Shown here: piece by piece, positions 29,468 to 62,452 of the stretch
How positions within the stretch are numbered: the first letter of the stretch is position 1
Layout of the letters: every line of letters starts with the position of its first letter
NCBI RefSeq assembly: GCF_030384885.1
Contig: NZ_CP128614.1
Reading direction: 5' to 3' (one strand)
From: Escherichia coli
Lineage (GTDB): Bacteria > Pseudomonadota > Gammaproteobacteria > Enterobacterales > Enterobacteriaceae
Length of the DNA stretch: 64,000 nucleotides
Notes under the pieces: generated by a model
The model's input: only the letters and a program-made list of their open reading frames with translations
Told to the model about the DNA's origin: nothing
Databases searched by the model: none
Made by a program: the position numbers and the translations under genes

Positions 29468-29578
29468 TTTCTCCTTTTATGGATATAACTGGCAGATCCT
29501 CAGCAGCATCAAAATAGTTAATAGACTTTTTTAATTGGTTAACCACTGTTGATTGACTTGTTTTATGTCTCTGAGAAA

Positions 29579-36582: not shown

Positions 36583-37053
36583 TCAATGATTATTTTTTTC
36601 TTCTAATTTTTTTATGACATTCCCATGCTTTTTACCACACCATGCTTGTTTCCTACCCATAATAAGCAAAACCATTGGCTCGGTCGCTTTCAGTCCGGTT
36701 CGCCAAGACCTTAGATCAGTACTTGATGGCTGTGGGAAATCTTCGGGATGCGTATGCCATTCGCCCAAATAGACTAGAAAACCGTCTGATTGCTGAAATA
36801 AGTCATCCACTTTTTGCTGGTGATGTTTGCTTTTTCTTTCTATTCGTAATCGCGATCTTATATCACCTGCGCCTGGTTCTGATATGTGGGTGATGACAAT
36901 GTGTTTCCCACGACGTTCTCCAATAAGGATTCCTCCTGCCTCGGTACTGGCATGATGTAATTGACGATATAAATACAACCGCTGCACAACATCACTCATG
37001 ATGACGACATGATTGTAATCATCATCGATAAAAACTAACTCAGTTATGTTCAT
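36583..37053 (-). CDS. cap3: CBASS Cap3 (JAB/JAMM isopeptidase)
   Basis: 156-aa ORF with EWHTHPEDFPQPSSTD (HxHx7Sx2D JAMM motif); overlaps the cap2 stop by 14 bp. Confidence 0.75.
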   Translation of the reverse strand: MNITELVFIDDDYNHVVIMSDVVQRLYLYRQLHHASTEAGGILIGERRGKHIVITHISEPGAGDIRSRLRIERKSKHHQQKVDDLFQQSDGFLVYLGEWHTHPEDFPQPSSTDLRSWRTGLKATEPMVLLIMGRKQAWCGKKHGNVIKKLEEKNNH

Positions 37054-38809
37054 TGCAGATAGGACAGTTAGGCTGATGTGGCAAAAACTGAGGTTTCAGT
37101 GAACGTCCACCTTCTAACATATGCTCGTTGTAAGTCCATTTGAGGTCAGGCTCAAGAGTACTCAAGACTGCCTGTTGAGCCAAAGATGCCGTTATATTAC
37201 TCACCGCCGCATCATAAGATGTGTATGTGCTACCACAACTTTTATTTTTTTCACTTGAGATATCGAGGTTGTAAAATCGGGAATCGATACCATTATGGTA
37301 TTTTGCTGGATTAGTAACCATACATCCATAGCAGCTTCGGCCATCATCGATTAAAACTTTGGATGCTCGTCCATTACCATCATTGAAGGCGTGGATAATA
37401 ATAGGTCTTTGCTCACAGGGAATCTGTCTTACGATAGCCGCAATACGCTTGGAAACAGGAGGTCGACCTGTTGCATCGATAATAATGTCATATTTTTTCA
37501 TAACATCAATACTGATGGGGAATTGCTTATAAAATCCTTCTACTCTGGTCTGTAAATGCACAGAGTCTTGAAGTTTTGTTGCGAGTGAGAGCGCTTTGGA
37601 CCACCCAAAATCATGTGAAGGTAAAATGTGACGACCAAAATTACTAGGACGGTAGATATCATCATCAAATAAATGCAGTAAACCTTTCCCACAACCGGCA
37701 CCGTTTCGGAGTAACAATTCTGCAATATACCCACCAATGGTTCCGCAACCAACTAAAGCTATACGCTTATCGGATAAGCATTCTTTGCTTCTCCTTTGGG
37801 CATTTCGGCTAAGGAGGGTTGCCATATCAGCGCGAACCACACCCAATCGTTTATATGAGGCGCATACATTTTTACCAGCTAACAATGTGGCAAGTTTGGA
37901 CGTTGATTTTTTAGCTGATCTCTTGTGCCTTCTGAAATCAACAGCGTTAGTATTTAACTCAATATAGATGGCAAATATATCTTGATTGAAAATGTCGAAT
38001 AAAAAAATATATCTTTTCTTCCCCTCTGTTGTGATGTAGTGAACCACTCTGTCCCTGGCATTATGGTCCGCATTTTCTAGCCAGTCCAGTAATTCGCGGA
38101 ATGAAGTCGGTGGCCATTTCATCCCAGCAAGACGATTAGGGTTTACAGAAATATAATGAGTGTTGATAGAATAATTTTTCAAAGATTCTTGACGAAGGTA
38201 TCTTTGATTAAGCCATTTTTTTAAAATGGTTTCAGAGTCCTCGGGAGAGGATTCTTGGACAGTTATATATTCTAGCCTGGGAGAACCATCAGGAAATGTT
38301 GACTCTGAAAACAGTGTCTTAAGTCTGATCCCGCGGCTTGCTTTTGATAAAATATATAAACTATCACTAGGTCGCCAGTAAGTTGCAAATTCACCTTCGA
38401 GTTCTCTCTTATCATTCAGGCCATTAGTAGCGGCTAAAACTGAATTAATCAGTGTTCGGTGAATCTGGGCATCGACTTCTTTGTACGTACCCTCAAGGTT
38501 GTTTGGATCCCAATCAGCTTCCAACTGCTCTACATAACAGAGAATTCCTTCTTGGCTTATGTGAGGCATAAGGCGATCTCTGAACTTTTCAGGCAGATCA
38601 ACTATGCAAGCTAATGGCAGTTCCGTAAAAGGATCTGGCCGAATAACTAGTGCTACATTGAAATTTCCGGCTTCGGTTTCATATTCTTTCGTATAATAGC
38701 CTTTCAGGCGTTCCTGACTGTGTAGGAACGCCTTTTCAGGAAGTTTGCGGGCTAGCGTATAGCGATACCCGCACTCTATCATCATTTTATGGAGCCTTCC
38801 TTCCTCCAT
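37040..38809 (-). CDS. cap2: CBASS Cap2 (E1/E2 ubiquitin-like conjugation enzyme fusion)
   Basis: 589-aa ORF; Rossmann/ThiF-like ALVGCGTIGGYIAELLLRNGAG in the C-terminal half; start overlaps the CD-NTase stop. Confidence 0.75.
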   Translation of the reverse strand: MEEGRLHKMMIECGYRYTLARKLPEKAFLHSQERLKGYYTKEYETEAGNFNVALVIRPDPFTELPLACIVDLPEKFRDRLMPHISQEGILCYVEQLEADWDPNNLEGTYKEVDAQIHRTLINSVLAATNGLNDKRELEGEFATYWRPSDSLYILSKASRGIRLKTLFSESTFPDGSPRLEYITVQESSPEDSETILKKWLNQRYLRQESLKNYSINTHYISVNPNRLAGMKWPPTSFRELLDWLENADHNARDRVVHYITTEGKKRYIFLFDIFNQDIFAIYIELNTNAVDFRRHKRSAKKSTSKLATLLAGKNVCASYKRLGVVRADMATLLSRNAQRRSKECLSDKRIALVGCGTIGGYIAELLLRNGAGCGKGLLHLFDDDIYRPSNFGRHILPSHDFGWSKALSLATKLQDSVHLQTRVEGFYKQFPISIDVMKKYDIIIDATGRPPVSKRIAAIVRQIPCEQRPIIIHAFNDGNGRASKVLIDDGRSCYGCMVTNPAKYHNGIDSRFYNLDISSEKNKSCGSTYTSYDAAVSNITASLAQQAVLSTLEPDLKWTYNEHMLEGGRSLKPQFLPHQPNCPICNEHN

Positions 38810-40110
38810 CAGCCGCTTACCATCGTGGTGTTAATTTTTACAGGCGCCTGCTCCTTAGACGGGGAGATTTGAAATGCAGGAGCCGCAGCAATTGAAGTTA
38901 TTAACGAGGCATTAGTTACTCGTTTTCCAAACGCATTGTTTATCTTACGTAATGCTTCTTCCCTGCTACTTGAACTCTCTGCATCAAGCAAAATCCCCTC
39001 TAAATTTCTCATGGTTTCAACGATGGTTCTCTGATGTACGTTATGATCGCATTCGGCAGGGAAAAGTAACTTTTCATCAGTATCGTCGGGACTTTCCAGA
39101 CCGCGACAGAATTCATTAGGTAGTAATCTTGCAACTAGTTTCATCGTCCCTGTGAGGTCTGAACCATTATGTGCTTCTCTGTCGAGGATGTTTACAACTG
39201 CAGCCATCAGGCTAATAGATGAAGGACCTCCCACTTCCCATTGGGCATCTCTCCAGGCCTTCATAAAGCGGCAAATTGAACGGAGATGACCGCCAATACG
39301 CTTGCAACTATCATTAAACCAATCTTCAACAATTTTGGGGTCGCTGATCGACCACCTTCTTGCACCCTGACGCAGCGCTAAATTAACTTTGTCAGGTTCT
39401 ACTAGATATGCCTCGCGCATATCCATGTTTGCTGATAAAGACTCGAACATGGAGTCGGCACTTTTTATGATGTGTGCTGAATCGGCTGCAGTTTGTTTGG
39501 TCTGAAATTGCTCTTTGGGGATCGCATACATCGGTACGTCGATGTGTGTTTTCTCGTGAGGAATTTTGATGCGTCCGCAGGTGTTTTTTTCTTCATATAC
39601 CCATCCATCGTTTTCAGCCTCTAACGATTTCAGTGACGTATCAACGAGCAGAAGAAGTAAGGTGTGCCCAATACTGGGTTCGGATTCAAAGACCGTCATT
39701 GGCATGTAGGTGCCGTCATCGATATCCATTTCCTGACCCGGGTGAAAAGGTCTGTTTAACGTATCGTATTGAAAACTCCCTTGGGTCCAGAAGCGAGGTT
39801 GAAATTTGATGAAGTCATCACGAGCTACATCTTCCATTTCAAAAATGAGTCGAGCGAGAGTCTCACGGTCTGAGGGAGAGAGGTAGCGAACATTAGTTTG
39901 CTCCAGTTTAAATCTAACGCTTTCAAGCGTCAGAGTTTGCTTTCTGGCGTCTGTAGCAATTTGACGAGCTTCTTTAAACACATCCCTCGTTCTTTCACGG
40001 ACTTTCTGGCGAAGTGCTTTCAGTTTGTCGGATTCAGTCTTACCCAATTTTAGTTTACTGATTAAGCCATCCACACTATGGCTGTAGTAATTGTTAAAAT
40101 CCCAACGCAT
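38809..40110 (-). CDS. dncV: CD-NTase, DncV-like cyclic dinucleotide synthase
   Basis: 433-aa ORF; NTase motif QGSFQYDTLNRPFHPGQEMDIDDG; long stretches match Vibrio cholerae DncV as recalled (MRxxWNFxxYY N-terminus, RFWTQGSFQYDTLNRPF, C-terminal NxAFGxRVTN...STMVSG). Confidence 0.85.
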   Translation of the reverse strand: MRWDFNNYYSHSVDGLISKLKLGKTESDKLKALRQKVRERTRDVFKEARQIATDARKQTLTLESVRFKLEQTNVRYLSPSDRETLARLIFEMEDVARDDFIKFQPRFWTQGSFQYDTLNRPFHPGQEMDIDDGTYMPMTVFESEPSIGHTLLLLLVDTSLKSLEAENDGWVYEEKNTCGRIKIPHEKTHIDVPMYAIPKEQFQTKQTAADSAHIIKSADSMFESLSANMDMREAYLVEPDKVNLALRQGARRWSISDPKIVEDWFNDSCKRIGGHLRSICRFMKAWRDAQWEVGGPSSISLMAAVVNILDREAHNGSDLTGTMKLVARLLPNEFCRGLESPDDTDEKLLFPAECDHNVHQRTIVETMRNLEGILLDAESSSSREEALRKINNAFGKRVTNASLITSIAAAPAFQISPSKEQAPVKINTTMVSG

Positions 40111-41180
40111 CAGTGGATCTCCTGCGCATTCATGCGCTTAAAGGGTTTTGCGGGAGTAGTGAAAAAATTCTTAAGCTTCTGATCTTGAGCGAACTCAACA
40201 TTGGCGAGCTGCCTTCCCCTTGCGCTTAAATTTTCAAGGGAACTCTTCGTGGCATTATCCAGGGTGATATCACTGGCTGCTTCATTGGGGATAATTTCAT
40301 CCAGGTAGATGTAGTTATCCACCGCGTCATGGAGCATAAGCTCACGCTGTAGCATATTTTTATGAAGATGCTGGTTAGCTGTCATGGTTGTAAGCACCAG
40401 CCGTTTTCCCATACCCCAGAGACGACAGTAGCCATTCCACCATGTTTTGCTCAACAACTTTGGACTAAGTGAATACTCTTCACCAACAGTACCGATATTA
40501 AGTATATGTATGTCTTTATGGGTGACGCTGAAGTCAGAATTCATATCCCTGAAAACTTCCAGAAGTCCTATGTAGCTGGGGTTGTTTGCGACCAGACCAC
40601 CATCGGCAAAATATGCGCGGAGATCCTCACAATAGTGTGGGGAAAAATACGTTGGCGCGGCTGAGGTTGCCAGTGCGGCATCTATCAATTTAAGAGGCCC
40701 ATCACGAGTAAAATCTGGGTTGTGTGGTGTCTTGAAAAACTGCGGTTTTCCTGTTGAAAGGTTTACTGCCGGGATCATTACTCGCCGGGTTAGGTCATTG
40801 AATGTGGTTTCAGCCCCAATCATTTCTTGAATTGTTTCGCGAAGAGGATGGCTGCGGTAGATAGGAGCACAAAGTGATCTAAGCAAGTTGGTCAGGGACC
40901 ATCTTTTGGGAAAAATGTCATTCGCCCTATCGAAGAACACTCGTTCCAGCTCACGGGCACTTTTTCCTGTAGCAAGGCCGAGAGCTAATATGCCGCCTAT
41001 TGATGTCCCTGTAATGAGGTCAAAATAATCGCCAATTTTAATATCCTGATTAGGGTATTTGCTGGCAAGTATCCTCTCAATCTCAGAAAGGACACTGATC
41101 GTAAACATTCCCCTGGCCCCCCCGCCATTAAGACTTAGTATCCGCACGCCATAGTGATTTCCTGCACTTATGTCAGACAT
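40110..41180 (-). CDS. capV: CBASS effector CapV (patatin-like phospholipase)
   Basis: 356-aa ORF with patatin motifs GGGARG (oxyanion), GTSIGG (GxSxG nucleophile) and DGG; stop overlaps the dncV start. Confidence 0.85.
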   Translation of the reverse strand: MSDISAGNHYGVRILSLNGGGARGMFTISVLSEIERILASKYPNQDIKIGDYFDLITGTSIGGILALGLATGKSARELERVFFDRANDIFPKRWSLTNLLRSLCAPIYRSHPLRETIQEMIGAETTFNDLTRRVMIPAVNLSTGKPQFFKTPHNPDFTRDGPLKLIDAALATSAAPTYFSPHYCEDLRAYFADGGLVANNPSYIGLLEVFRDMNSDFSVTHKDIHILNIGTVGEEYSLSPKLLSKTWWNGYCRLWGMGKRLVLTTMTANQHLHKNMLQRELMLHDAVDNYIYLDEIIPNEAASDITLDNATKSSLENLSARGRQLANVEFAQDQKLKNFFTTPAKPFKRMNAQEIH

Positions 41181-43235: not shown

Positions 43236-43547
43236 CTAAGGCTGATCCTTCTTCAAGATTTTGATGAGTTCGATTTGCTGTTGTTCAGACATGTTAGCGA
43301 TCAGGCGAGCTAACTCTGCAGTCGTTTCGTTCTCGCAAAAGAAGTAGTTGATCGGTACCCCAAGTTCATCAGCCATACGCTTAAGAGTATCAATGTCAGG
43401 AGTATGTCTCCCCTTCTCGTAGTGGTTCATGCGGCCACTCGCTGAACTTGGTTCCATGCCAATTCGGATACCCAATTCTTTCTGAGTGATCCCGGCATAC
43501 GTTCTGGCAGCCTTGAGCCTGTCAGGTATCGGATTTGGGTGAGCCAC
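43236..43547 (-). CDS. XRE-family HTH transcriptional regulator
   Basis: 103-aa ORF with HTH LKAARTYAGITQKELGIRIGMEPSSASGRMNHYEKG; divergent from the helicase operon. Confidence 0.6.
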   Translation of the reverse strand: MAHPNPIPDRLKAARTYAGITQKELGIRIGMEPSSASGRMNHYEKGRHTPDIDTLKRMADELGVPINYFFCENETTAELARLIANMSEQQQIELIKILKKDQP

Positions 43548-43572
43548 GAAGTCATCATCATTGCCTTAGAGT

Positions 43573-43623
43573 ACTTAGATTGTCTAAGTTTCGTTGGTTT
43601 CTGTATACTTAGCAATTCTAAGT
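43573..43623. promoter_or_regulatory. two 17-bp palindromic operators in the divergent promoter region
   Basis: ACTTAGAttgTCTAAGT (43573-43589) and ACTTAGcaattCTAAGT (43607-43623), same half-sites, 17 bp apart, between the XRE gene and the helicase-operon start. Confidence 0.6.
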
Positions 43624-43646
43624 TTACTGATTTGGAAGTTTTAACA

Positions 43647-44216
43647 ATGAAGTCTGCAGTGAAGTTGCACCCTTATATTTATAATTTGTTGATAGAAAGA
43701 GATTTTGATGAGTTCGGTGCTATCCATCTCAGGGACGCTTTGCTGAAGATTACAGATTCATATGCTGATGTAACTGAAGCCAGAAAATTCATCCGCCGAC
43801 AACTTATCCGGCTGGAGGCATTGGGCTTCATTTTTAAAATTGAAAATAGCAGTGGGCGTCCGAAGATCCTGTACAAGAAAACGGAAAGCTTCTATTCAAC
43901 GACTTTCATACCAAGAAAATTGCCAAGTAACTCGCGCCTGGCTGCTGTGCCCGAAAATGTGAAACTACACGTTTTGGATGTCGATCTGTTCTTAATGGAC
44001 CTGACAAAAGAAAAAACTGTCCATGAGGCCAAACTTGCCGTCATTCTGAGTGAAATTGAAGAGTACCAGTCTCTTATGGAGCGTTTTCCCAGTAGACGGA
44101 GCTGCTTTATTGAACTCCATCAGCACGCAAAAAATCAGTCCGCCGCTTTGCTTGGCAGGGTTACTGCTTTATCGAAAGTGCTAGGTCAGCTTAGCGATGG
44201 GGATTGCGCATGCTGA
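43647..44216 (+). CDS. hypothetical protein, first gene of the helicase operon
   Basis: listed ORF 43539..44216; likely start is ATG at 43647 (MKSAVKL..., RBS-like GGAAG upstream) since the upstream part overlaps the divergent XRE gene; no catalytic motif recognised; 13-bp overlap with the helicase gene. Confidence 0.5.
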   Translation: MKSAVKLHPYIYNLLIERDFDEFGAIHLRDALLKITDSYADVTEARKFIRRQLIRLEALGFIFKIENSSGRPKILYKKTESFYSTTFIPRKLPSNSRLAAVPENVKLHVLDVDLFLMDLTKEKTVHEAKLAVILSEIEEYQSLMERFPSRRSCFIELHQHAKNQSAALLGRVTALSKVLGQLSDGDCAC

Positions 44217-45598
44217 GGGAGTGGCAGAAAGAATGCTCTGAAGCAGCGCTAGAAAAATATCAATCTGGATCGCCGCACTTTCTATGTCTTGCCAGTCCTG
44301 GTGCAGGAAAAACCGTGATGGCTGCTGAAGTTGCCAGGAAAATGCTGGAGCTGAAACTAGTAGATCTCATCCTATGCTTTGCACCTTCATCTGTGGTGGT
44401 TGCATCCATTGAAAGTACTTTCTCCCATATTCTTCAAAGGAACTTTAATGGTGGTCTTGGTGCAGTAGGTGCTGCGTATACTTATCATAGCTTGATGTAT
44501 TTCGATAAAAGCTTCTGGAAGTCTTTGCAGATGCATCGGGTATTAGTTATTTTCGACGAAATCCATCATTGTTCTGGCGATTCGCTGGATAATGCTAATG
44601 TGTGGGGCGGGGAAATCCTTTCTCAAGTTCAGCAATGTGCCAGTTACTCTTTGGCACTAACAGGGACTCCATGGCGAACTGATAGTACTCCTATAGTGCT
44701 CTCAAATTACACTGATCCGGATGGGGAGATCTGTTGTGACTATGTATATGGACTACATGAGGCTATTGTCGATGGTGTTTGTCGTAAACCTAAAATCGCC
44801 TTGATAAACAGCAATAATTTAGTATATTCATCAAAGGATAATGTTCAGTTTTTTGGTTCCATCACAGATTTCCTGAGTGAAACCGTTGCTTCGTATCAAT
44901 CAATAATTTGGCATCCAGAAGCAATGAAGTATGTACTAGAAGCTGGATGTAAAAAACTTAACGAAATACGCAAAGTTAATTCTGATGCGGGTGGTTTAGT
45001 TGTTGCTTCTTCAGTCGAGCATGCATATAAGCTACTGAATATTTTGGAAAAAGAGTTTGACCAAACAGCGATAATTGTGACGTACCACGATCGAGATGCT
45101 TTGGCTAAGATTGGATATTATCGGCAATCAACTACAGAATGGATTGTTAGCGTTGGTATGATTAGTGAGGGCACAGATATCCCCAGGCTACAGGTCTGCT
45201 GCCATTTGAGTTCTGTCAAAACAGAACTTTACTTCAGACAAGTATTGGGCAGGATATTACGGGTGAATCAGAGTGAAAATCAGGAAGCCTGGTTATTTAC
45301 AATGGCTACAAATGAACTGACATTATTCTCAAACAGATTGGCCGAAGATTTACCTGAAGATTATAAAGTTATGCAACAACAATCTGATGATTGGTCATTC
45401 CCTACAATTGATTCTCAGTCTATGCCTCCAGAGTTTGTGCGGAAAAATGGTATATCTAAAATAAAAGAGATTGATTTAGAAATGGATATTGGTGAAATAA
45501 CTACATCGTCACCTACGATTTCAAGTCAAACAAAACAACTAAAAATGGGCTCAATGCATCAACAAGTGATAGATGCATTTTTATTTTCAATTATTTAA
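44204..45598 (+). CDS. SF2 DExH-box helicase
   Basis: 464-aa ORF with Walker A ASPGAGKT, motif II IFDEIHH, LTGTPWR, and motif VI FRQVLGRILR. Confidence 0.65.
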   Translation: MRMLREWQKECSEAALEKYQSGSPHFLCLASPGAGKTVMAAEVARKMLELKLVDLILCFAPSSVVVASIESTFSHILQRNFNGGLGAVGAAYTYHSLMYFDKSFWKSLQMHRVLVIFDEIHHCSGDSLDNANVWGGEILSQVQQCASYSLALTGTPWRTDSTPIVLSNYTDPDGEICCDYVYGLHEAIVDGVCRKPKIALINSNNLVYSSKDNVQFFGSITDFLSETVASYQSIIWHPEAMKYVLEAGCKKLNEIRKVNSDAGGLVVASSVEHAYKLLNILEKEFDQTAIIVTYHDRDALAKIGYYRQSTTEWIVSVGMISEGTDIPRLQVCCHLSSVKTELYFRQVLGRILRVNQSENQEAWLFTMATNELTLFSNRLAEDLPEDYKVMQQQSDDWSFPTIDSQSMPPEFVRKNGISKIKEIDLEMDIGEITTSSPTISSQTKQLKMGSMHQQVIDAFLFSII

Positions 45599-45992: not shown

Positions 45993-46433
45993 TTATTTTA
46001 TTCTTACTATCTGGCCTTGTTTTAAAGCTTTTATCTCTTGTTCCAGCGCTTCAATACGTGAACGTGCAACCCTCAGCGCATGGGAGAGCTGATGATGTTC
46101 AGCCGCCATCACTTCCAGACGACGTTTCATATCAGATGCTTTTACACGGTACTGAATTTTCACTTTACGCTCTTGGTTAAATTTATGTCGCAGGGCTTCC
46201 TGTGACTGATGAGTTAGCCTGCCCTGAGGGGATATTTTTAACCGCAGAATTTCCTCCTGGACGCGTGACTTAAATGCCCCGTAGTAGTAACAGGTTCCGT
46301 TTCCCAGCCCGGCCTCCTCTTCAACAGCACGCACCGACAACTTTCGGTTGTCAGGGATACGTTTTGTCTGACCATCAAGGATCCGTTGTAGTGCAGCTTC
46401 AAGTTTAAGGAGTGTATTTTCTGATTTGCTCAT
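45993..46433 (-). CDS. small coiled-coil protein downstream of the recombinase genes
   Basis: 146-aa ORF overlapping the stop of the 720-aa gene by 4 bp. Confidence 0.45.
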   Translation of the reverse strand: MSKSENTLLKLEAALQRILDGQTKRIPDNRKLSVRAVEEEAGLGNGTCYYYGAFKSRVQEEILRLKISPQGRLTHQSQEALRHKFNQERKVKIQYRVKASDMKRRLEVMAAEHHQLSHALRVARSRIEALEQEIKALKQGQIVRIK

Positions 46434-48592
46434 ACGCCTGTCACCTTAATGGGATGTTCATATGTGTCATAGCCAATCCCATGATCCTGCATAACCCGTT
46501 CCGCAGCCCGGATTTGAGTGATACAGTGGGCATACTCACTGATGCTTAGATCCGTCTGTTGCTGAAGATACATTATCAAAGCATTATGACGTTGCTGCCA
46601 CCACATGGCCTTATCCGTATCGATAATGCTTCCACCGCTACGACAATCCACGCAGAATGCAGGGTTGACCACACCATCCATATCGCAGTCATAGCCGTTT
46701 TTGCAGTAACTATGTAGCGTTCCATGCAAAGTAAGTCGTTTTTCCCTGACCAGTCGATAGAGATTATCCCAGCTACTGTAGATCACAGGCTTATCATTAC
46801 GCATAGCTAGAATGGCTTTGCCAAAACTTCCGCTGAGTTGACTATCCCCGTTAAACCAGCTGTCAAAAAGACTAGTTGTCTGTTCGAGCCTTGCTTCATT
46901 CAGTAATTTAATCAGTTCGCTGTCCACCTGTATTGATTGTAGCCGTGCTTCAACAGCACCGTTCCCATACCATTCACTCATTCGCAGGCTGAGGTGTTTA
47001 AACTGTTGTTTGATTGCGATGGGGTGTCCGAGCTGGTTACGTACGGCAAAGCAGGCGAAAGTTCTTCGAAACTGATGGGTTAAAAGGGGCCAGGCCTCTC
47101 CTGTTCTGATCTTATCTTCTATAGCCCCCCTGTCCCGAGGGTTAAGCTGACGGCACTCTGCGAGTGCCTGTTTATCAACAATAGCACCCACATGTCTGGA
47201 AAAATTTTTTAAACGGTCGTTCCACTTGCTGCGTGAAATGAGGACAGGCAGGTTTTTTCTTTGGTACTGGCTGAGCCACAGATTTCCTGCTGTCTCAGTA
47301 AGCGTATCAGACTGCCCTGGGTCGTTGCTGTGAACCGCTATTTTTAACAGCTGTTCACGAGCACACGCGCTGAGAGCCGTCGCAAGCGATATGGCTTTTT
47401 CAACAATAGGGCTTGCCAGCCATTCTTCATTTTTTTTCCCGGCAGCCAGTTTGTGGGTTGCTGCGCTTACCGAGTGAAAATCCTGTCCATTAATGGTGTA
47501 GGTGTGAAAACTGTCCACATGCAATTCAAATATTTCGCTGACTCTCATTCCTGTGAAAGCACCACAACAAATAAAACAGGCTGCCTGAAGTTGAGCACGA
47601 AAACTGACGAGCCAGTTACCGTCTGCTGCGCTACTGGGCAGGAGTCCTGTTCCGGTGAGATGGTTTTTGATTAGGGTATTTTGCGACCGGGGTGTCGCTT
47701 TATTAATTTCTTCTACATATTCTTTTGAACATAATTTCCCCTGTCCGTTAGTCAGCCATGTCCACTTACCTGTAAGTATTTTATAGTCAACAACGGCACG
47801 CCCGATATCATAATTAGACTGCAGTTCACGTTCTAGCTGGGCTAGTGTTTCTCTGTGGGGCCATGCAAGCTCGACAAGTCTAACGGCTTCTCCATAGAGT
47901 ATATTTGCTATTGCCTGGGGGATGGCCAGGGTTTGCCTGTGTTCTGCTTTATTTTTAGCTGACAGTTTTTTGGCTGTCTGTTTGTAGTTCAGCTGTGGCA
48001 GGTCAAGCTGGAAAGGAAGCCATGAATTTAGTCTTTCGACTGACTGTAGTGCAGAGAAAATCAATTCAACAGTTCGCTTACTAAAGGCTTCACGTTCGAT
48101 ATCGTTTTGTAGCTTTTGCCATATCTCGGGTTTATTGAAGTCAGACAGGCACGTGCTGCCACTATGCAAAAGCGTTAATAAACTCTTTTTTAACCCTAAA
48201 TTGAATCGGGAGGTCAGTGTTGACAGCTTGCAGTCTTTTCCGGAGTGATAATTTTGCTCAAATATCCATCCATATACGATAAGCTTCGCCTGAAGGAGAA
48301 GCGCCGGAGCGGACTCCAAATAGGTAAAGTTAAATTCACGCTGGTTTTTATCCGTTCCCTTATCTGAAGCAAAGGGGCTACAGTCCCAGCAATTTTGACC
48401 AAAATATGCTCGCGTGATGTTATGTTTATCGATACATATTGGGAGCTTATCGAGCGCAGACCAGTTTTTGTTTTTTATCAGAAGTAAAATATCTTCTGTG
48501 GCTCCATACGTCAGAGCGTCTTTATGAAATGAGTTCAACAGAATAGCCATAGTGATCCTTATGTCATATCTGTGCTTTGCACATCTGACCAC
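46430..48592 (-). CDS. tyrosine-recombinase-like protein (third of three tandem genes)
   Basis: 720-aa ORF with AFTGMRVSEIFEL (box I Arg) and LTHQFRRTFACFAV (HxxR) in the C-terminal half. Confidence 0.55.
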   Translation of the reverse strand: MVRCAKHRYDIRITMAILLNSFHKDALTYGATEDILLLIKNKNWSALDKLPICIDKHNITRAYFGQNCWDCSPFASDKGTDKNQREFNFTYLESAPALLLQAKLIVYGWIFEQNYHSGKDCKLSTLTSRFNLGLKKSLLTLLHSGSTCLSDFNKPEIWQKLQNDIEREAFSKRTVELIFSALQSVERLNSWLPFQLDLPQLNYKQTAKKLSAKNKAEHRQTLAIPQAIANILYGEAVRLVELAWPHRETLAQLERELQSNYDIGRAVVDYKILTGKWTWLTNGQGKLCSKEYVEEINKATPRSQNTLIKNHLTGTGLLPSSAADGNWLVSFRAQLQAACFICCGAFTGMRVSEIFELHVDSFHTYTINGQDFHSVSAATHKLAAGKKNEEWLASPIVEKAISLATALSACAREQLLKIAVHSNDPGQSDTLTETAGNLWLSQYQRKNLPVLISRSKWNDRLKNFSRHVGAIVDKQALAECRQLNPRDRGAIEDKIRTGEAWPLLTHQFRRTFACFAVRNQLGHPIAIKQQFKHLSLRMSEWYGNGAVEARLQSIQVDSELIKLLNEARLEQTTSLFDSWFNGDSQLSGSFGKAILAMRNDKPVIYSSWDNLYRLVREKRLTLHGTLHSYCKNGYDCDMDGVVNPAFCVDCRSGGSIIDTDKAMWWQQRHNALIMYLQQQTDLSISEYAHCITQIRAAERVMQDHGIGYDTYEHPIKVTGV

Positions 48593-50334
48593 AGGGGATG
48601 TCGTCCTTCATCAGCAAGTTTTCGACGGGCATGTTGTAGTGTTTTTTGATTCAGTAATTTCAGCCTGCTATCAATGTTTACGATGGTCTGGCCAAAGTTT
48701 TTTGTGTAATGGGCTTTATCCAGGTGAAGGTATTGTGATTCTTCCAGATATTCACGGAAGCTTAACACGCACCATAAATCCGTTACTGATTCGACCAGAA
48801 CCTGATGTTTGCAACTCCAGCAGTTTAACAGGTCAGCACAAGCCAGCGTTTCTTCCGGGGGGATCAGCCCGTTTCTCCTGGCCCGGGAAGTGAACATCGT
48901 GGCCATTGTACCAGCCGTGTCGTTACAATAACTTCCATGGGAGTTTCGTACGGGAGGCGATGCTCTTCTGACATAGGCCTCATATGCCAGCACGCTGACC
49001 TTTTGTGCTTCACGTACTTTCTGTTTTGCAGATTCAATACTCTGCCTGTCCCGGACAACCTGTTCCAGTGTCTGGCTGGTATCCCGGTTCATTTGATTGT
49101 TCTCGTAGGGGTTACCATCAGAATATGCCTGACGGATAGTTTCGGGGGTATTATCAAGCAGTAGTGCAGCCTCGACCGGGCCCTTCAGCGCCAGTGTCAG
49201 ATGACTGCCGGTGGCCCGAAAGCGCCTGGTGACCGGCCACAGCCTTTGCCCTAAGTCGTCTGTCATGGGGAAGTGTACAGAGAGCCAGCTACTTTTGAAG
49301 TCATTCAGCAGGCAGGAACTCATCATCTGGACGCTTTTTTTCCGATGACTATAGGTCGGTAAGAGCAGGCCATCCGGGCCGGGGTCTAACAACGTTGACG
49401 CAGTAATGAGCTGGTCAAAAAACTGTGTTGCGTATTTGGGTATTTCCAGCCGATTGTTGTCACCTATCTCAACAGAGATTGTTTTAAATGCCCGGCGCTT
49501 AAAGGCTGGCATCTGATGCCAGTTATCTGATGGTGTATGGCTGCTGAGTGTCGGTCTTTTTAATGTGTACAGGATGGAGCTGTTGCTCCATGTGTAATAA
49601 CTGAGCAGGTATGCGGCTGCATAAAATAATTTTGATACACCGCTGCGTACAGGATACGTTTTCCCTTTCCAGCAAAAAGTCATTGTTGCTGTGATACCGC
49701 TGGCTTTGATATGTGAATCTGGGTCAAGAATAAACTGGGAGTAAAGTTGCCTGAACAGTCCTCTTAGTAAAGGGAGTAATTTTTTCAGGTCACCATCGCT
49801 ATATCCTCGTGTGGGCTCTGATTGTGTATTTCCCGGGTTTTTAAACCCTGACGTAAACTTTGTACTCCGCCCCATCCAGTTGTATAAGGTTGTCAGGTCT
49901 GCCTTTATCCTGGAGGCTGTGCTGTCTTTGATTTCGCCCCTCCTTTGACGAAGTAAATGACATTTCAACTCTCTGATGAACGTGCTCTCAGACAGGGGGA
50001 TAAGTGCTGGCACCTGACTGTCACAGAAAGTAAAATGCTTTCTTGCAGCATTAAAAATATTATACTTTGTTGCAGGTGTGACATCTTCATGGCCAGTAAT
50101 TGCAATAAACAGTGACTGTACAATGTCATCCCGTGCCAGTAATTGCTCATCCCCCTGTTTTATCAGGTTGGTTTTGGGTATGCCCTTATAGCGAAAGCGG
50201 TTAAAATCTAACAGGGTATGAGCATTGGCGCCATTGCGTATTGGTATACAGAGGTGTTCAACCCAGGGCGTTGTGAGTTTTAATTTGCTGCTCATACTTT
50301 CACTCCAGTAGTGCTCTGTGCATAATTTCATCAA
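48559..50334 (-). CDS. recombinase-module protein (second of three)
   Basis: 591-aa ORF overlapping both neighbours; catalytic motifs not clearly readable. Confidence 0.45.
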   Translation of the reverse strand: MMKLCTEHYWSESMSSKLKLTTPWVEHLCIPIRNGANAHTLLDFNRFRYKGIPKTNLIKQGDEQLLARDDIVQSLFIAITGHEDVTPATKYNIFNAARKHFTFCDSQVPALIPLSESTFIRELKCHLLRQRRGEIKDSTASRIKADLTTLYNWMGRSTKFTSGFKNPGNTQSEPTRGYSDGDLKKLLPLLRGLFRQLYSQFILDPDSHIKASGITATMTFCWKGKTYPVRSGVSKLFYAAAYLLSYYTWSNSSILYTLKRPTLSSHTPSDNWHQMPAFKRRAFKTISVEIGDNNRLEIPKYATQFFDQLITASTLLDPGPDGLLLPTYSHRKKSVQMMSSCLLNDFKSSWLSVHFPMTDDLGQRLWPVTRRFRATGSHLTLALKGPVEAALLLDNTPETIRQAYSDGNPYENNQMNRDTSQTLEQVVRDRQSIESAKQKVREAQKVSVLAYEAYVRRASPPVRNSHGSYCNDTAGTMATMFTSRARRNGLIPPEETLACADLLNCWSCKHQVLVESVTDLWCVLSFREYLEESQYLHLDKAHYTKNFGQTIVNIDSRLKLLNQKTLQHARRKLADEGRHPLWSDVQSTDMT

Positions 50335-51679
50335 GCATAGAGATTTTTTCTTTCAGGGCTTCTTTAGTTTTTAGATAGCGTAAATACTTCCATGTTGTTG
50401 ATTCATTTTTATGCCCCATCCATTGCATCAGCAGGCTGAGTGCATCGGCAGGCTCTATGCCCGCAGTAAGTAGACTGTACAGGCGATACGTTGCATAACT
50501 GCACCTCAGGTCATGAAACTTATGGTCAAATGCGATCCCTGAATTAATCATTTTTTTTCGCAATTCACCAAATCGGGCACCCGTGCTCTGTGGGGTACAG
50601 GGGGAGCCCTGCTGACTAATAAATAAGGGTTCATTTTGAATGGCAGAAACTAAAGATTCAGATCTGATTTTGTCTGAAAAGAGTGTTCCGGGTACGGTTT
50701 TTATTTCTTGCTGACCCATTTTTAACATCGCTTTAATACGCATCTGTAATTTATCAAAGCGGGTCATTCTTCTTTCGCTAATGGCATAGTGCTGTAATTT
50801 ATCTAAAAGAGTATTAGTTATTTCAATCGTTCTTGTTTTATTATATTTAGTGGGTACACCGTTACTAGGTCCAATAGTGATTTCGTAGTGGGTACGTGAT
50901 TCGGTTCTTTGTACAGCCTGATTTAACGCAGTTAAGGTAAATCCTGTGGCTTCTTCAATTCTGAGCCCACATTGTGCTGCCAGCAGACAAATAAGCTGCA
51001 TTTCAACTGAGGTCTGGCTAAGATGGATTGCAAATTCTGTAAGCATTGTTTGCGAAAGTGGTGATAATCTGCGAATATTCAGACTGTTAGAGTCTTTAGG
51101 GACCCTGATACGTAAATCCGTTGTCTGTACGAAAAATTTTGGCTTCATATGTGCCAGTATGTCGTTATTTCTGAATCTGACAAATTCTATGTCAAAGGGT
51201 TTGTTTGTTTCCGTTACCGGAAAGTAGTGCTCATACGCTGCCCAGAGATAGAACTGTACAAGATGACATATATAGGTATTAGCCGTGGAAAAAGCGATTT
51301 CTCCAGTTTTGACCTTTTTTAGCAGCCCATCATTACGGTAGCGATAGGCAGGTTTTAATGCTTTTACTGCAGGAAAGTTATCCCATGCAAGTTCTTCAGA
51401 CTCCAAAAAGCACCAGTAAAATTTTAACGCTCTTGCATAAGAGCTAAGGTTTTCCAGTCTTTTTTCAGCTTTGAGATGTATAAGCCATTGATTTACAGGT
51501 TCTATATAATTACCATCATAACCATACAATGTAGGAAGTGGACCCACATTTCGTCCCCCCCTGAATTCAATCGATTCATCTGTAGTAATGATATCACCAC
51601 CAATAAATACATCTGCTGAGTTGAGTAAATAAGCCAAGAATGCAGACCTCCAATGGTTGTAAACTTCTGCCATGCTCAT
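50300..51679 (-). CDS. tyrosine recombinase / integrase (first of three)
   Basis: 459-aa ORF with CGLRIEEATG (box I Arg), HKFHDLRCSYATY (HxxR) and C-terminal WKYLRYLK Tyr region. Confidence 0.65.
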   Translation of the reverse strand: MSMAEVYNHWRSAFLAYLLNSADVFIGGDIITTDESIEFRGGRNVGPLPTLYGYDGNYIEPVNQWLIHLKAEKRLENLSSYARALKFYWCFLESEELAWDNFPAVKALKPAYRYRNDGLLKKVKTGEIAFSTANTYICHLVQFYLWAAYEHYFPVTETNKPFDIEFVRFRNNDILAHMKPKFFVQTTDLRIRVPKDSNSLNIRRLSPLSQTMLTEFAIHLSQTSVEMQLICLLAAQCGLRIEEATGFTLTALNQAVQRTESRTHYEITIGPSNGVPTKYNKTRTIEITNTLLDKLQHYAISERRMTRFDKLQMRIKAMLKMGQQEIKTVPGTLFSDKIRSESLVSAIQNEPLFISQQGSPCTPQSTGARFGELRKKMINSGIAFDHKFHDLRCSYATYRLYSLLTAGIEPADALSLLMQWMGHKNESTTWKYLRYLKTKEALKEKISMLDEIMHRALLE

Positions 51680-53396: not shown

Positions 53397-53969
53397 CTAC
53401 ACTAACGTGTCATGGTAGGTTGAGCACTGACGGGTTGAAGAATTAGTCCAGGTCGGAAGTCCACGTCCAGTCAGAATGCGGCCTACCCAGCTCTGCGTAA
53501 GAGACGGTTGGGCGACAAGGACTGTGACCGGTAGCTGGTGTTCAGCAATGAACATTCTAAGCTGGTTGAGAACCTGTGAAGCCTGATAGTGCATCTCAGG
53601 GTTTTCGATCAGCGTATCGGACATCTGAATGAAATGATGTTCGCTGATATTTGTGCCGTTACGTACTGCCCTGATCAATGCCATCAGAAATAGGTGAAGA
53701 AGAGAATGGGAGTCTTTACCGCCACTGTATCCCACGCACATCGTCCATCCGTCCGTAATAGCCTGATAAATAGCAGATGTGGCTGACGTGACCAGAGAAG
53801 AAAGACTCACAGTCTCCTTTTCATCGGTATAGTTCAGATCGGCATCGGTTGTCAGGGTCTCCCAAACATCAGCCCATTTATCATGTTTCAAAATGGCAGC
53901 ATTAGCCGCCTCAGGAAAAATAACTTCTGAGGGTAATTCAAGGAATGAGTCACTTTTTTCAATAAACAT
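53397..53969 (-). pseudogene. N-terminal fragment of a PAPS-reductase-family (DndC/IbrA-like) gene
   Basis: 190-aa ORF with P-loop YSGGKDS and DT/PE motif (SDTLIENPE) but none of the downstream fold motifs; those are found in the 31221..33176 ORF. Confidence 0.5.
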
Positions 53970-56527: not shown

Positions 56528-57152
56528 TACACCGCAATTCAGAAAAAAGTTTCAGTTAGTCACATTACGAATAACCCGGCTTACTTTCGCATGTGCGTTC
56601 CCCTGCATGTTAAAGTAAAGCCCTCCGGGCAGACTCGTCGCCCACTTAACGCCTCGCTCAGCCATACGCTTCGGTGTTTCCAGCCAACCACGAGGAATAT
56701 TGCCCGGAACGTTACCGATAACCCGTCAAATGCATGCTGCTACCCGGATGCCGCCGGGAATATCGCATTTGGATTCAACAATATGCATGACCTCAGATAA
56801 AGCACCATGCCGCTGGACATGATCGCCAATGTGCAACTCGATAGGAGAAGCCATTTCTGAATCTGACTTCATATCTGTCCACCTTTAATTTAGAAACCGT
56901 CTAAATTACCAAATTAGTTAATCCAACAACATCTGTATCACAACCATCAATTTGTTTTTGTTGGGTCTATATCGTAGAAACAAGTGAATAATGAATACAC
57001 TCGTTAATACAGACAACCGGAAATGAATGACTACCTGATTATCTCAGCGGTATATGCTAAGCCGTTAATATTGCCATTCTCTGGTGGAACCACTGCTAAA
57101 TGAATAAACCGTTTGTCGCTTCAAACCACTTTATCAAAACCGTTAACTTGCA

Positions 57153-58403
57153 TTAAGTCCGATACAGTTCGGCGAGCTCATCCAGCATGGGGTTACTCTT
57201 ATATCCCGGTGCGGCCGTAAAAAGGTTTCGGGAAATCGCCAGCCACTCCATGATTTTGTCCGTCGCCAGCCAACGTCTGCCAAGTCGCTCGGCTGCGATG
57301 GGGACTTTATGCAAGCCAGCGAAGGGATCTACAACAAGATCTCCCGGCTCTGTCAAAAACTCAATCAGAAACGCTGCAAGCCTGGTAGGAGACGTTGCAC
57401 CGTGCAGCGGAAAACCGAGCTCGCGGGCAATGGAATGGCAAAATCTCGTATCAGCGCAGCTATTGCCGTAAAACAAAGTATTCTTGGGGATCGTTCCTTC
57501 TGTTTTATTTCCAAAGGAACCGCTTTTAAGCTGGTACGCCCCATCACCATAAAAGGTCGTGCGATTTTCACCGCCTGCTGCCTGCAATTTTAGATGCTGG
57601 TCTGAATGCGGTTGTAGTACACGTAAGTTGTTTGAACGAACCTTACTCGCATCATTGGTAAACCACAGCACAGGCTCATACGATGAGCAGAGCTGCACCC
57701 GTTGCTTACATGCCCAGTGCGTTGGCGATGGGGGCTTACTGCGATTCACCCACTGAAGCCTGTCCATGAGCTCAAGCCCCAGCTTGTCACATAATGCCAG
57801 TGTCAGACGCTCCAGATACAGAGAACGTGAAGGCCTACCCCTATTAAAGCTATCTTGAGTGATATTCAATGCCACACTTGCGCCCGGTACAAGCTGTTTC
57901 ACGATCGGTTCGAGGATACGCAGAAGCCAGTCAATATAAGCCTGCTCGCCACGCCCCCCTCCGTGCCCGTAGTCTCTTGAATTTCGAAGGAGGTAAGGTG
58001 GCGAGGTCAGGCAAAGATGAATTTGCTCGGTGATATTGCTGAAGAAGGCATAGGCGTTTCCAAAAACCGATGCCCCAAGAGAAGTTGAGAAACCGACAAC
58101 ACAGAGCTTTTCCCATGACTCATGCAGGTTTGTTTTCGTCTTAGAGGCGTATCTCCAGACGCCCCGTTTTTCTGGAACGCGTTCGATGACCCCGGCCTGA
58201 CGGAGAGTCTGCTGAAACCAGCGAACCTTATGTTTGACGCCGCTGGTTCTGGTTTTATCTGACCCAAATTCTTTCAGTTCGTGCAATTCGGCATCCGACA
58301 TGCCAGTTTTACGCTGCACTTCGCGATAAAGCTCGTCGTTGGTCAACGGCGATTCGGAGGCAGCGTAGATATGCGCAATTAAGTCCGTATTAATCGTACT
58401 CAT
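57153..58403 (-). CDS. DNA methyltransferase (N6-adenine or N4-cytosine class)
   Basis: 416-aa ORF with catalytic motif IV LCLTSPPY preceding SAM-binding motif VVDPFAGLH (beta-class order). Confidence 0.7.
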   Translation of the reverse strand: MSTINTDLIAHIYAASESPLTNDELYREVQRKTGMSDAELHELKEFGSDKTRTSGVKHKVRWFQQTLRQAGVIERVPEKRGVWRYASKTKTNLHESWEKLCVVGFSTSLGASVFGNAYAFFSNITEQIHLCLTSPPYLLRNSRDYGHGGGRGEQAYIDWLLRILEPIVKQLVPGASVALNITQDSFNRGRPSRSLYLERLTLALCDKLGLELMDRLQWVNRSKPPSPTHWACKQRVQLCSSYEPVLWFTNDASKVRSNNLRVLQPHSDQHLKLQAAGGENRTTFYGDGAYQLKSGSFGNKTEGTIPKNTLFYGNSCADTRFCHSIARELGFPLHGATSPTRLAAFLIEFLTEPGDLVVDPFAGLHKVPIAAERLGRRWLATDKIMEWLAISRNLFTAAPGYKSNPMLDELAELYRT

Positions 58404-58571
58404 CAGCCATCCTAATGGGGATACAGTTATTATATCGGCCTGATGGTTGGAAGTGAGATTACTAAATCAGACCGATCTGGTTTGTTGAAGACTTTGCCAA
58501 ATCATGCAGCACAGCTGGGCTTGCACAGAGCGAGCCGGGCTCCTTTAGCGGAGACACCTTCGCAAGTTGGA

Positions 58572-59192
58572 TTAATCAGCCTCAAGATTCTGGAACTCAA
58601 TGAGCTTTTGCTCACACTCCTCCCTGCCCCACGATCCCTGCCAGTCACAGATGTCCCGGTACTTACTTTCCAGCTTATCCATCTGTGCGAGATTAGCTGT
58701 TGCGAAGTCTGTCCATATGTCATGCCAGCAAGCGTTGTACGTAACGCCAGCTGGTGGACAATACTCCATTGCATCAGCATTAATAATTTCAACGCGAAGA
58801 TCGGTTGCAAACGAGGCTGCAACGAGGTTAATAACATCCTGTTCTTTTTCGATTACCGTGACATGGGTTACATCGTCTTTCTGAAGAATGGCGTGGAGCA
58901 CCATACCAAGACCAAGACCATTAATGAGCACCCGCCCGGTGGCTCGCTCTATAAAATCCTGGCAGGTTCGGATCTCCATCGGGGTATTGGACATCACCAC
59001 ATCCCAGCCGTTGGACAAGCGGCGATATCTACCGGGCGGGATAAACTCATCTGTATTACCAGTACACTCGGCACGAAGGGCGAGGGTCAGCGCCTTATCT
59101 GTGGTAATTTCGAAAGTGTCCAGTTTCCAAGTTCCGGACTTGCCGTCTTTAACGGGTAAATCAGAAAAGCAGCTCTTCATCGAGGCAACCAA
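58572..59192 (-). CDS. SAM-dependent methyltransferase-like protein
   Basis: 206-aa ORF with Gly-rich VLINGLGLGMVLHAIL resembling class I MTase motif I; substrate unknown. Confidence 0.5.
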   Translation of the reverse strand: MVASMKSCFSDLPVKDGKSGTWKLDTFEITTDKALTLALRAECTGNTDEFIPPGRYRRLSNGWDVVMSNTPMEIRTCQDFIERATGRVLINGLGLGMVLHAILQKDDVTHVTVIEKEQDVINLVAASFATDLRVEIINADAMEYCPPAGVTYNACWHDIWTDFATANLAQMDKLESKYRDICDWQGSWGREECEQKLIEFQNLEAD

Positions 59193-59335
59193 AATTCCAG
59201 TAGTTTTGTTACGCTGAACCTACCACAAACCCGCTCTTAATGAAGGCATCAGGAGCGATAGCGATCTTTGAGGCATCGTTTAAAACAGCGGCATCCTGTA
59301 ACAGACACCCGATATTTTTTTTAATGCCGCAGGTG

Positions 59336-59593
59336 TTAAAGGTAGCGTTGCAAAGTTGCAACATCTTCAGGGGCAACCTCCACGCAGCTCCTGACACTGT
59401 AGTGATTTTCGCCGTTGTAGTCATAAACCCCACCGTCTTCAAAACTCAGCTGTTCAACCTCGCCAGCACACTCGGAAATCAGTGCCGTCTGGCAAGCATT
59501 TTTCTCACAATCGCTGACGAGTATACGAACATAGCTTTTCTCATGGTCGCCGTTACGGTTCTGGATCTTTACGATAAAGTGTTTTTCAGACAT
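59336..59593 (-). CDS. hypothetical small protein
   Basis: 85-aa ORF. Confidence 0.4.
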   Translation of the reverse strand: MSEKHFIVKIQNRNGDHEKSYVRILVSDCEKNACQTALISECAGEVEQLSFEDGGVYDYNGENHYSVRSCVEVAPEDVATLQRYL

Positions 59594-62155: not shown

Positions 62156-62452
62156 TTAATGGATGAGCGATTTATAGTCATGTGCTGACAAATGGACATT
62201 ATGTGCGCCATCATTCCATTCAAAGAATAATCGATACTTAGAGTTTACTCGAATGGAGGAATAACGGTTTGACGTCATTCTTAAGCGTTCATAACGCAAG
62301 CTGTTGGATAATAACTCCCGCTCACTCTGGACATTATCCAGCGTTTCGAGTCGACACAGAATCGCGTTAATAATTTCAGAAGGAATACCTGCCGTTGTTT
62401 TTCCATTACGGAAGAACTTTTCAAGCCGTCTGTCTTTAAATGAATGGATCAT
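62156..62452 (-). CDS. HigB-family (RelE/ParE superfamily) toxin-like protein
   Basis: 98-aa ORF; pattern MIxSFKDxxLEKFFxxGxxxGIP...YSSIRVNxKYRLFFEWxDG...HDY matches the recalled killer-protein HigB family. Confidence 0.55.
   Translation of the reverse strand: MIHSFKDRRLEKFFRNGKTTAGIPSEIINAILCRLETLDNVQSERELLSNSLRYERLRMTSNRYSSIRVNSKYRLFFEWNDGAHNVHLSAHDYKSLIH

Follow-up and report, generated by a model that had tools for sequence, protein, structure and literature searches.

Two conserved genes of an IncHI2 plasmid backbone

The 64,000 nt of Escherichia coli DNA analysed here (contig NZ_CP128614.1; hereafter the window) belong to the backbone of a conjugative plasmid of the IncHI2 (R478-like) type, whose relaxase is of the MOBH class and whose mating system is MPF_F. 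Two conserved genes on its minus strand, the open reading frames (ORFs) ORF1 and ORF2, are the subject of this report and are arranged as follows:

57153–58403, minus strand: ORF1, orphan class-beta DNA amino-methyltransferase, M.PvuII-like (predicted to form N4-methylcytosine, m4C), 416 amino acids (aa), identical to WP_000104323.1
58404–58571, minus strand: ORF2–ORF1 intergenic region, 168 bp, as read from the sequence
58572–59192, minus strand: ORF2, free-standing protein of the class I S-adenosylmethionine (SAM)-methyltransferase fold (SpeE/GAMT-like), WP_000833773.1

ORF2 has 206 aa when read from the first TTG (59192) and 202 aa from the ATG at 59180; the latter, which matches WP_000833773.1 and the homologues, is probably the start. 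RefSeq labels WP_000104323.1 as 'site-specific DNA-methyltransferase' and WP_000833773.1 as 'hypothetical protein', and one plasmid annotation names the pair 'Modification methylase PvuII' and 'Polyamine aminopropyltransferase'. The region 56900–59400 is 100% identical in ~600 PLSDB plasmids (from Escherichia, Salmonella, Klebsiella and others) and shares 90–95% identity with ~400 further PLSDB plasmids, among which those of Enterobacter predominate. When two IncHI2 lineages were compared, both genes were found to be under purifying selection, with dN/dS values of 0.10 (ORF1) and 0.16 (ORF2). In a few otherwise identical plasmids (NZ_OU015329.1, CP088806.1, NZ_ON960341.1 and others), an insertion sequence (IS) of the IS5 family is located within the 2-kb stretch; in one of these (match H49) it splits ORF1 into a piece annotated 'winged helix-turn-helix' and a piece annotated 'DNA methyltransferase'.

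ORF1 encodes an M.PvuII-like DNA methyltransferase

ORF1 matches Pfam N6_N4_Mtase (PF01555) with 78.5 bits (cutoff 26.7; E 9e-22) and the PADLOC MTase_II profile at 1.2e-46. Its best match among solved structures is M.PvuII (PDB 1BOO; phmmer E 2.3e-39), the m4C enzyme of the PvuII type II restriction-modification (R-M) system, with the site CAGCTG; residues 105–392 of ORF1 are colinear with residues 10–291 of M.PvuII, so that the alignment covers the interval from the catalytic to the SAM motif as well. In the AlphaFold model of ORF1, built with 25 homologues (predicted local distance difference test score, pLDDT, 79), the methylase core is preceded by an N-terminal domain that resembles a winged helix. 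With this model, Foldseek again returned 1BOO as the best match (E 7.6e-22, template modelling score 0.80, 26% identity over the structural alignment), and matches 2 to 46 were DNA amino-methyltransferases throughout, mostly of class beta. Three elements can be distinguished in the protein:

58119–58403, minus strand: ORF1 N-terminal domain (~aa 1–95), Mrr_N-like winged helix (Pfam Mrr_N) with a conserved RWxQQ helix
57993–58007, minus strand: ORF1 catalytic motif IV, T-S-P-P-Y (aa 133–137), aligned to TSPPF of M.PvuII
57306–57329, minus strand: ORF1 variant of SAM-binding motif I, D-P-F-A-G-L-H-K (aa 359–366), from the family alignment

The Mrr_N match over the first 85 residues is marginal (29.6 bits versus a cutoff of 29.5), and this domain is recorded for most members of the ORF1 family. 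In the model it follows the pattern helix/beta-hairpin/helix/wing, and residues R61, W62, Q64, Q65 and W83 are invariant in the alignment of 25 homologues (45–74% identity) to which all conservation figures for ORF1 refer; the domain is presumed to bind DNA. In motif IV, S134 and P136 are invariant and P135 is at least 90% conserved, while in motif I, D359 and G363 are invariant and F361 is at least 90% conserved. The order of the motifs, IV then I, is the class-beta permutation. Since DPFxGxxK is the family-wide consensus, the departure of ORF1 from FxGSGTT is a trait of the family and not a sign of decay, and the variant SAM loop, given its conservation, is probably functional. The family, which occurs on mobile elements, comprises 949 clusters at E <1e-10, nearly all of which are ~415 aa long and share this two-domain architecture; they originate from Aeromonas, Yersinia, Ralstonia, Cupriavidus, Acidithiobacillus and metagenomes. 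Between motifs IV and I, conservation is high.

ORF1 thus shares with M.PvuII the IV-then-I order, the TSPP(Y/F) motif and a colinear catalytic and recognition region, but adds the ~95-aa Mrr_N-like winged helix and the DPFxGxxK form of motif I, and has neither an R.PvuII nor a C.PvuII partner. Among amino-methyltransferases, the combination of an SPP(Y/F) motif with similarity to M.PvuII speaks for N4-cytosine chemistry, and ORF1 is predicted to make N4-methylcytosine. CAGCTG is a possible target by analogy with M.PvuII, although at 26% structural-alignment identity the site of ORF1 need not be the same.

ORF1 has no recognizable restriction partner

A preliminary description of this DNA had reported no endonuclease gene nearby, and our searches agree with it. 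No nuclease was found among the ten flanking ORFs (54.1–63.0 kb) with Pfam, NCBIfam, PHROGs, PADLOC or phmmer against all PDB sequences, the sole identifiable neighbour being a HigB-type RNase toxin (62156–62452). Nor did the adjacent ORFs have a match to any helix-turn-helix (HTH) family of Pfam or NCBIfam that could represent a small controller (C) protein. Two genes of the backbone, encoding an HNH protein (29579–30145) and a NERD protein (9317–10048), are many genes away from ORF1. At the loci of ORF1 homologues in four other element types, the neighbours differ (small ORFs, an upstream ParB-HTH gene, H-NS-like genes and a 2-oxoglutarate-Fe(II) oxygenase) and no partner is conserved. The orphan status of ORF1 is well supported, within the detection limits for fast-evolving endonucleases.

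Because ParB-type genes recur just upstream of ORF1-like methylases, the ParB-like gene and the ORF1 methylase family tend to travel together. The IncHI2 ParB-HTH protein (394 aa; 14976–16160, minus strand) is homologous (28% identity, E 5e-14) to a 319-aa protein of an Aeromonas integrative and conjugative element (ICE), where its gene lies just upstream of an ORF1-like methylase gene, and a 312-aa HTH_ParB protein holds the same position in another element. The genes at the homologous loci are:

413–1372 of locus L004: ParB-like gene beside an ORF1 homologue
5028–5966 of locus L015: ParB-like gene beside an ORF1 homologue

ORF2 encodes a small protein of the methyltransferase fold

Single-sequence profile searches of ORF2 against Pfam and NCBIfam gave only sub-threshold matches, to spermidine synthase (24.1 bits in NCBIfam, where the cutoff is 472) and KsgA, and a single-sequence search against the PDB gave nothing. 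The ORF2 family is large (1882 clusters, ~200 aa, mean column identity 44%). ORF2 is matched at 3.5e-34 by PHROGs phrog_15480, a phage family labelled 'methyltransferase', and the family profile retrieved spermidine synthases from the PDB (E. coli SpeE at 6.8e-6). The ORF2 model (pLDDT 94.7) has the Rossmann-like seven-strand fold of class I SAM-methyltransferases, with the GxGxG loop and the acidic residue at the end of beta2 that the SAM-dependent methyltransferase fold requires; apart from this core and a short N-terminal lid, the protein contains nothing further. Its closest relatives are guanidinoacetate N-methyltransferase (GAMT) and spermidine synthases, the structural neighbours sharing 12–16% identity with it, and there are zero DNA methyltransferases among the top 60. 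Two motifs of the core were located:

58905–58922, minus strand: ORF2 motif I, N-G-L-G-L-G (aa 91–96), SAM-binding glycine loop, aligned to GGGDG of E. coli SpeE
58713–58721, minus strand: ORF2 post-beta4 motif D-I-W (aa 158–160), aligned to ISD of spermidine synthase

Residues N91, G92, L93, G94 and G96 of the first motif and D158, I159 and W160 of the second are invariant in 37 homologues, and the family has an invariant motif of its own, MSNTPxE. The D-I-W motif occupies the site at which DNA amino-methyltransferases carry (D/N/S)PP(Y/F/W); ORF2 has no such motif IV after beta4 and nothing resembling a target-recognition domain.

In spermidine synthase, the Asp of GGGDG selects decarboxylated SAM. 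ORF2 has GLGLG in place of GGGDG, so that it lacks decarboxy-SAM selectivity, and its score is far under the NCBIfam cutoff; both speak against an identity as spermidine synthase or another aminopropyltransferase. Because this Asp is replaced, ORF2 is more likely to be a SAM-using methyltransferase than an aminopropyltransferase. It also differs from SpeE and GAMT in its size of ~200 aa, its MSNTPxE motif and its location on mobile elements. An acidic residue after beta4 is typical of transferases acting on amine or guanidino nitrogens, such as GAMT and the protein arginine methyltransferases (PRMTs), and ORF2 would most likely N-methylate an amine or guanidino group of a non-DNA substrate, either a small molecule or a protein. 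No functional study of the family was found in the literature.

The two genes are neighbours only in IncHI2 plasmids

The preliminary description had regarded the pair as two adjacent orphan methyltransferases. The adjacency of the genes, the assignment of ORF1 as an SPPY-type DNA methylase and the SAM-methyltransferase-like character of ORF2 all hold, whereas the evidence points away from ORF2 being a sequence-specific DNA methylase, as it has neither motif IV nor a recognition domain. The count is one orphan DNA methylase plus one unrelated methyltransferase-fold gene.

A related IncHI-like plasmid of 226 kb keeps the gene order DnaJ-like, HigB, 393-aa protein, 87-aa protein and ORF1-like methylase, and its ORF2 homologue is ~10 kb from the ORF1-like methylase. 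In the Aeromonas ICE, the ORF1-like and ORF2-like genes are 4.4 kb apart, with parA and parB between them. No ORF1-like gene was found within 6 kb of the closest non-IncHI2 relatives of ORF2, which are on ~219-kb Salmonella/E. coli plasmids (76% identity) and Klebsiella plasmids (68%); in the Salmonella and Klebsiella plasmids, genes of 413 aa and 424 aa in the vicinity of ORF2 homologues were checked as candidates and are not ORF1 homologues. More distant ORF2 homologues occur without an ORF1 partner, on a Rep3 plasmid, on phage-like contigs and, in a phage, as the first gene of an early-gene array. Since the homologues elsewhere lie apart or alone, the ORF1–ORF2 adjacency is specific to IncHI2 among the contexts examined, and a functional ORF1–ORF2 module was rejected on synteny.

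Within the spacer, a perfect TATAAT is located 26 nt upstream of the ORF1 ATG. The terminator scan detected no minus-strand terminator-like hairpin between ORF2 and ORF1, and found such hairpins upstream of ORF2 (59309–59290) and downstream of ORF1 (56823–56804); these promoter and terminator results occur at chance frequency, so that an operon structure is only suggested. A 19-nt block at 58458–58476 (CCCAGCTGTGCTGCATGA-like), which contains CAGCTG (the PvuII site) 114 nt upstream of ORF1, is kept between IncHI2 lineages though the rest of the spacer has diverged. CAGCTG was not found within 250 nt upstream of the ORF1 homologues (0 of 8 fetched loci, representing five distinct elements), and its frequency in the window is about one per 2.7 kb; self-regulation of ORF1 via this site was rejected, and the site was treated as a chance occurrence.

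Location with respect to the origin of transfer

The window begins 95 nt inside mobI, which is followed on the plus strand by a 245-aa gene and the genes for the MobH relaxase (1129–4281), the coupling protein (4281–6365), a DUF4400 protein, an S49 peptidase and the NERD protein. In SXT/IncC elements the origin of transfer (oriT) is upstream of mobI, and TraH of R27 has been described as a MobI-like factor (bioRxiv 10.1101/2025.04.21.649884). By analogy, we infer that oriT is located in the ~670 bp that separate mobI from the divergent trh genes, immediately left of the window. The methylase locus is on the relaxase side of this putative oriT, at a distance of 57 kb here and ~40 kb in the reference plasmid CP022165, the difference being due to a ~20-kb insertion in this window. 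Current analyses take the leading region to be the side opposite the relaxase; with it so defined, MOB-H plasmids showed no anti-defence peak, and the plasmid taxonomic unit PTU-HI2 was dropped from the leading-region analysis for want of a known oriT (bioRxiv 10.1101/2025.04.03.647016). With oriT placed as above, the locus would be outside the leading region as conventionally defined.

The literature search yielded nothing on the transfer polarity of IncHI/MOBH11 plasmids. If the rule for F, RP4 and R388 holds, ORF1 and ORF2 would enter late, the transferred strand would be their sense strand, and transcription from the single strand would be impossible. If, instead, MOBH11 plasmids transfer relaxase-first, the minus-strand array extending from 10 to >64 kb would be template-competent and would resemble a classical leading region. 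An Rfam scan of the whole window, which did not include a dedicated Frpo model, returned no family above threshold. On the minus strand between 10000 and 64000, the backbone genes are nearly all small, unannotated and co-oriented toward oriT; they include genes for HigB and Hok (the latter annotated in the reference plasmid), the ParB-HTH/ParB-like gene, the HNH gene, a DndC-like gene and the methylases. Such leading-region-like content on the relaxase side of oriT bears on the anti-defence deficit reported for MOB-H plasmids. Transfer polarity would not decide on a protective role for ORF1, as a plasmid methylated in the donor would deliver a methylated strand wherever the gene lies.

Possible roles of ORF1 and ORF2

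The explanation that we favour, with a probability of roughly 0.6, is that ORF1 and ORF2 are accessory genes of the IncHI2 backbone which function independently of each other and are neighbours by chance, ORF1 being an active solitary m4C-type methylase and ORF2 an N-methyltransferase of a non-DNA substrate. ORF1, through its M.PvuII-type catalytic and target-recognition core, would methylate cytosine N4 at one fixed short site, with the N-terminal winged helix probably assisting DNA binding. When ORF1 is expressed in the plasmid host, both plasmid and host DNA would be methylated; the transferred strand would enter the recipient in methylated form and become hemimethylated after synthesis of the complementary strand, and the hemimethylated state would blunt cleavage by restriction enzymes with the same site. 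The most probable main benefit of ORF1 would then be protection of the transferred plasmid from site-sharing restriction enzymes. ORF2 is a stand-alone gene circulating among phages, plasmids and ICEs. An anti-restriction role is plausible for ORF1 only.

Several points weigh against this explanation. i) IS-disrupted ORF1 persists in complete plasmids; since IS insertions inside ORF1 are found in surviving plasmids, the gene is dispensable for plasmid survival. ii) Protection would be limited to recipients whose restriction enzymes share the single site of ORF1, which is narrow cover. iii) Motif I of ORF1 is unlike the usual FxGSGTT, and SAM binding is assumed from its conservation. iv) The CAGCTG count in the window (24 observed, 30.8 expected) is uninformative on specificity, and avoidance of this site as a pointer to the specificity of ORF1 was dropped. 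v) The literature search gave no methylome or biochemical data on ORF1 or ORF2, and no paper that connects an m4C motif with IncHI2 or mentions WP_000104323. vi) The genes may be co-transcribed, there being no terminator between them, which would allow a functional link. vii) The substrate class proposed for ORF2 is drawn from fold neighbours at 12–16% identity, and ORF2 may be a non-canonical nucleic-acid methylase.

The main alternative, which we hold to be improbable though worth stating, is that ORF1 acts chiefly as an epigenetic regulator of plasmid or host genes such as those for transfer, in the manner of Dam or CcrM, with any protection incidental. It is consistent with the solitary state of ORF1 and its conserved extra DNA-binding domain, and the fixed architecture of the family together with the conserved region between motifs IV and I suggests one conserved site; regulatory orphan m4C methylases have reportedly been documented. 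There is, however, no evidence of regulated targets, the candidate self-regulatory CAGCTG is missing upstream of the homologues at all eight loci, and ORF1 is dispensable in some plasmids.

Similarly doubtful is the possibility that ORF2 is a counter-defence or host-takeover enzyme whose methylation target is a small molecule or protein of the host, in which case both genes would serve establishment as part of an early-entering island. ORF2 homologues do occur among small genes of early or accessory type that form arrays, once as the first gene of a phage early array beside RecT-type genes; phages, plasmids and ICEs all carry conserved members of this widespread family, and the locus is within a long array of co-oriented genes, toxin genes and a ParB-like gene among them. 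Yet this support is purely contextual, ORF2 matches no known anti-defence family in a PADLOC search, and conventional polarity would mean late entry and the wrong strand for single-strand transcription. In its broadest form, to which we give equally little credence, the ORF2 family as a whole would N-methylate a non-DNA substrate (a host metabolite, a signalling molecule or a protein) for establishment or counter-defence, and the array would be the true early-acting island of IncHI plasmids; if so, an early island on the relaxase side would explain why the anti-defence peak of MOB-H plasmids is missing from the conventional leading region.

It is rather unlikely that both genes are orphan DNA methyltransferases jointly shielding the incoming plasmid, for example with two specificities. 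The genes are adjacent and co-oriented with no terminator-like site between them, both proteins have SAM-methyltransferase folds, and ORF1-like and ORF2-like genes are within 4–10 kb of each other in the Aeromonas ICE and the IncHI-like plasmid; against this, ORF2, with ~200 aa and without motif IV or a recognition domain, has no DNA methyltransferase in its top 60 structural neighbours, and most of the ORF2 contexts looked up, including those of the closest IncHI1-like and Klebsiella relatives, have no DNA methyltransferase nearby. Finally, restriction enzymes evolve fast, R.PvuII itself is small (157 aa) and all ten neighbours of ORF1 are annotated 'hypothetical', but that ORF1 is the methylase of an R-M system with an unrecognizably divergent endonuclease among these small neighbours (85–347 aa) is very improbable, given zero nuclease signal in five libraries, no neighbour kept beside ORF1 homologues in the other elements examined, differing intervening genes where IncHI backbone synteny holds (locus L010), the absence of an adjacent C-protein-like HTH gene, and the persistence of IS-disrupted ORF1 alleles, incompatible with an active cognate endonuclease.

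Other features of the plasmid

The ~20-kb insertion (33177–53396) splits a backbone DndC-like/3'-phosphoadenosine-5'-phosphosulphate (PAPS)-reductase gene, the flanks of which are at 31221–33176 and 53397–53969 on the minus strand and which is intact, with 794 aa, in CP022165. The insertion constitutes a mobile island of defence genes within a resistance plasmid and contains the following:

50300–51679, 48559–50334 and 46430–48592: three overlapping genes led by a tyrosine recombinase
43539–45598: ResIII helicase pair
40110–41180, 38809–40110, 37040–38809 and 36583–37053: type II cyclic oligonucleotide-based antiphage signalling system (CBASS), encoding a patatin, a DncV-like cyclase, a Cap2 E1/E2 protein and a Cap3 JAB protein, respectively
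33419–34525: HEC-08/DUF3644 candidate defence gene

The genes for a DUF6012 protein and the 188-aa HNH protein, which has weak PtuB-like matches, form a conserved backbone pair at 28856–30145 (minus strand), and the NERD nuclease-related gene (9317–10048, plus strand) directly follows the Tra1 operon. In the reference plasmid CP022165, a further annotated 'methyltransferase' of 253 aa (WP_001167416.1; 24236–24997 of locus L001) is located ~10 kb past the right edge of the window. The whole window lacks the NaeI/NgoMIV site GCCGGC (0 versus 11.3 expected under a maximal-order Markov model), which is the most depleted 6-bp palindrome; CTCGAG, CCGCGG, GTGCAC and GGCGCC are likewise low.

Relation to known plasmid methyltransferases

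ORF1 is annotated as a DNA methyltransferase in ~1000 plasmid records and is, as such, already known and an ordinary plasmid feature. Enzymes of the M.EcoGIX type are said to be N6-adenine methyltransferases of relaxed specificity with a fused ParB-like domain. They are described as single-strand-specific and, like ORF1, are plasmid-borne orphan amino-methyltransferases for which protection of transferred DNA has been proposed (Fomenkov 2020, cited in PMC11541004). In contrast to them, ORF1 is an SPPY-type, M.PvuII-like protein with an Mrr_N domain, with no evidence for single-strand activity. Orphan methylases are well documented on large conjugative plasmids (PMC11541004; PMC11602122), and plasmid leading regions show an enrichment of orphan DNA methyltransferases (Samuel & Burstein 2024, PMC11541004). 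ORF1 resembles the latter in being solitary, on a conjugative plasmid and among small co-oriented genes with toxin-antitoxin and ParB-like genes, but differs from them in that its position would be on the oriT flank with the relaxase, and so not within the leading region in the sense of that study. What is added here is that the locus holds one DNA methylase and not two, that the architecture of ORF1 is widespread and orphan family-wide, and that the locus would not be in the conventional leading region.

The ORF2 family and the question of the side of oriT may matter more than ORF1. Across Escherichia, Salmonella, Enterobacter and Klebsiella, IncHI2 plasmids are major vehicles of mcr-1, mcr-9 and multidrug resistance, so that backbone genes which aid their entry are worth knowing, and it is plausible that ORF1 contributes, narrowly, to the entry of these plasmids into new hosts.

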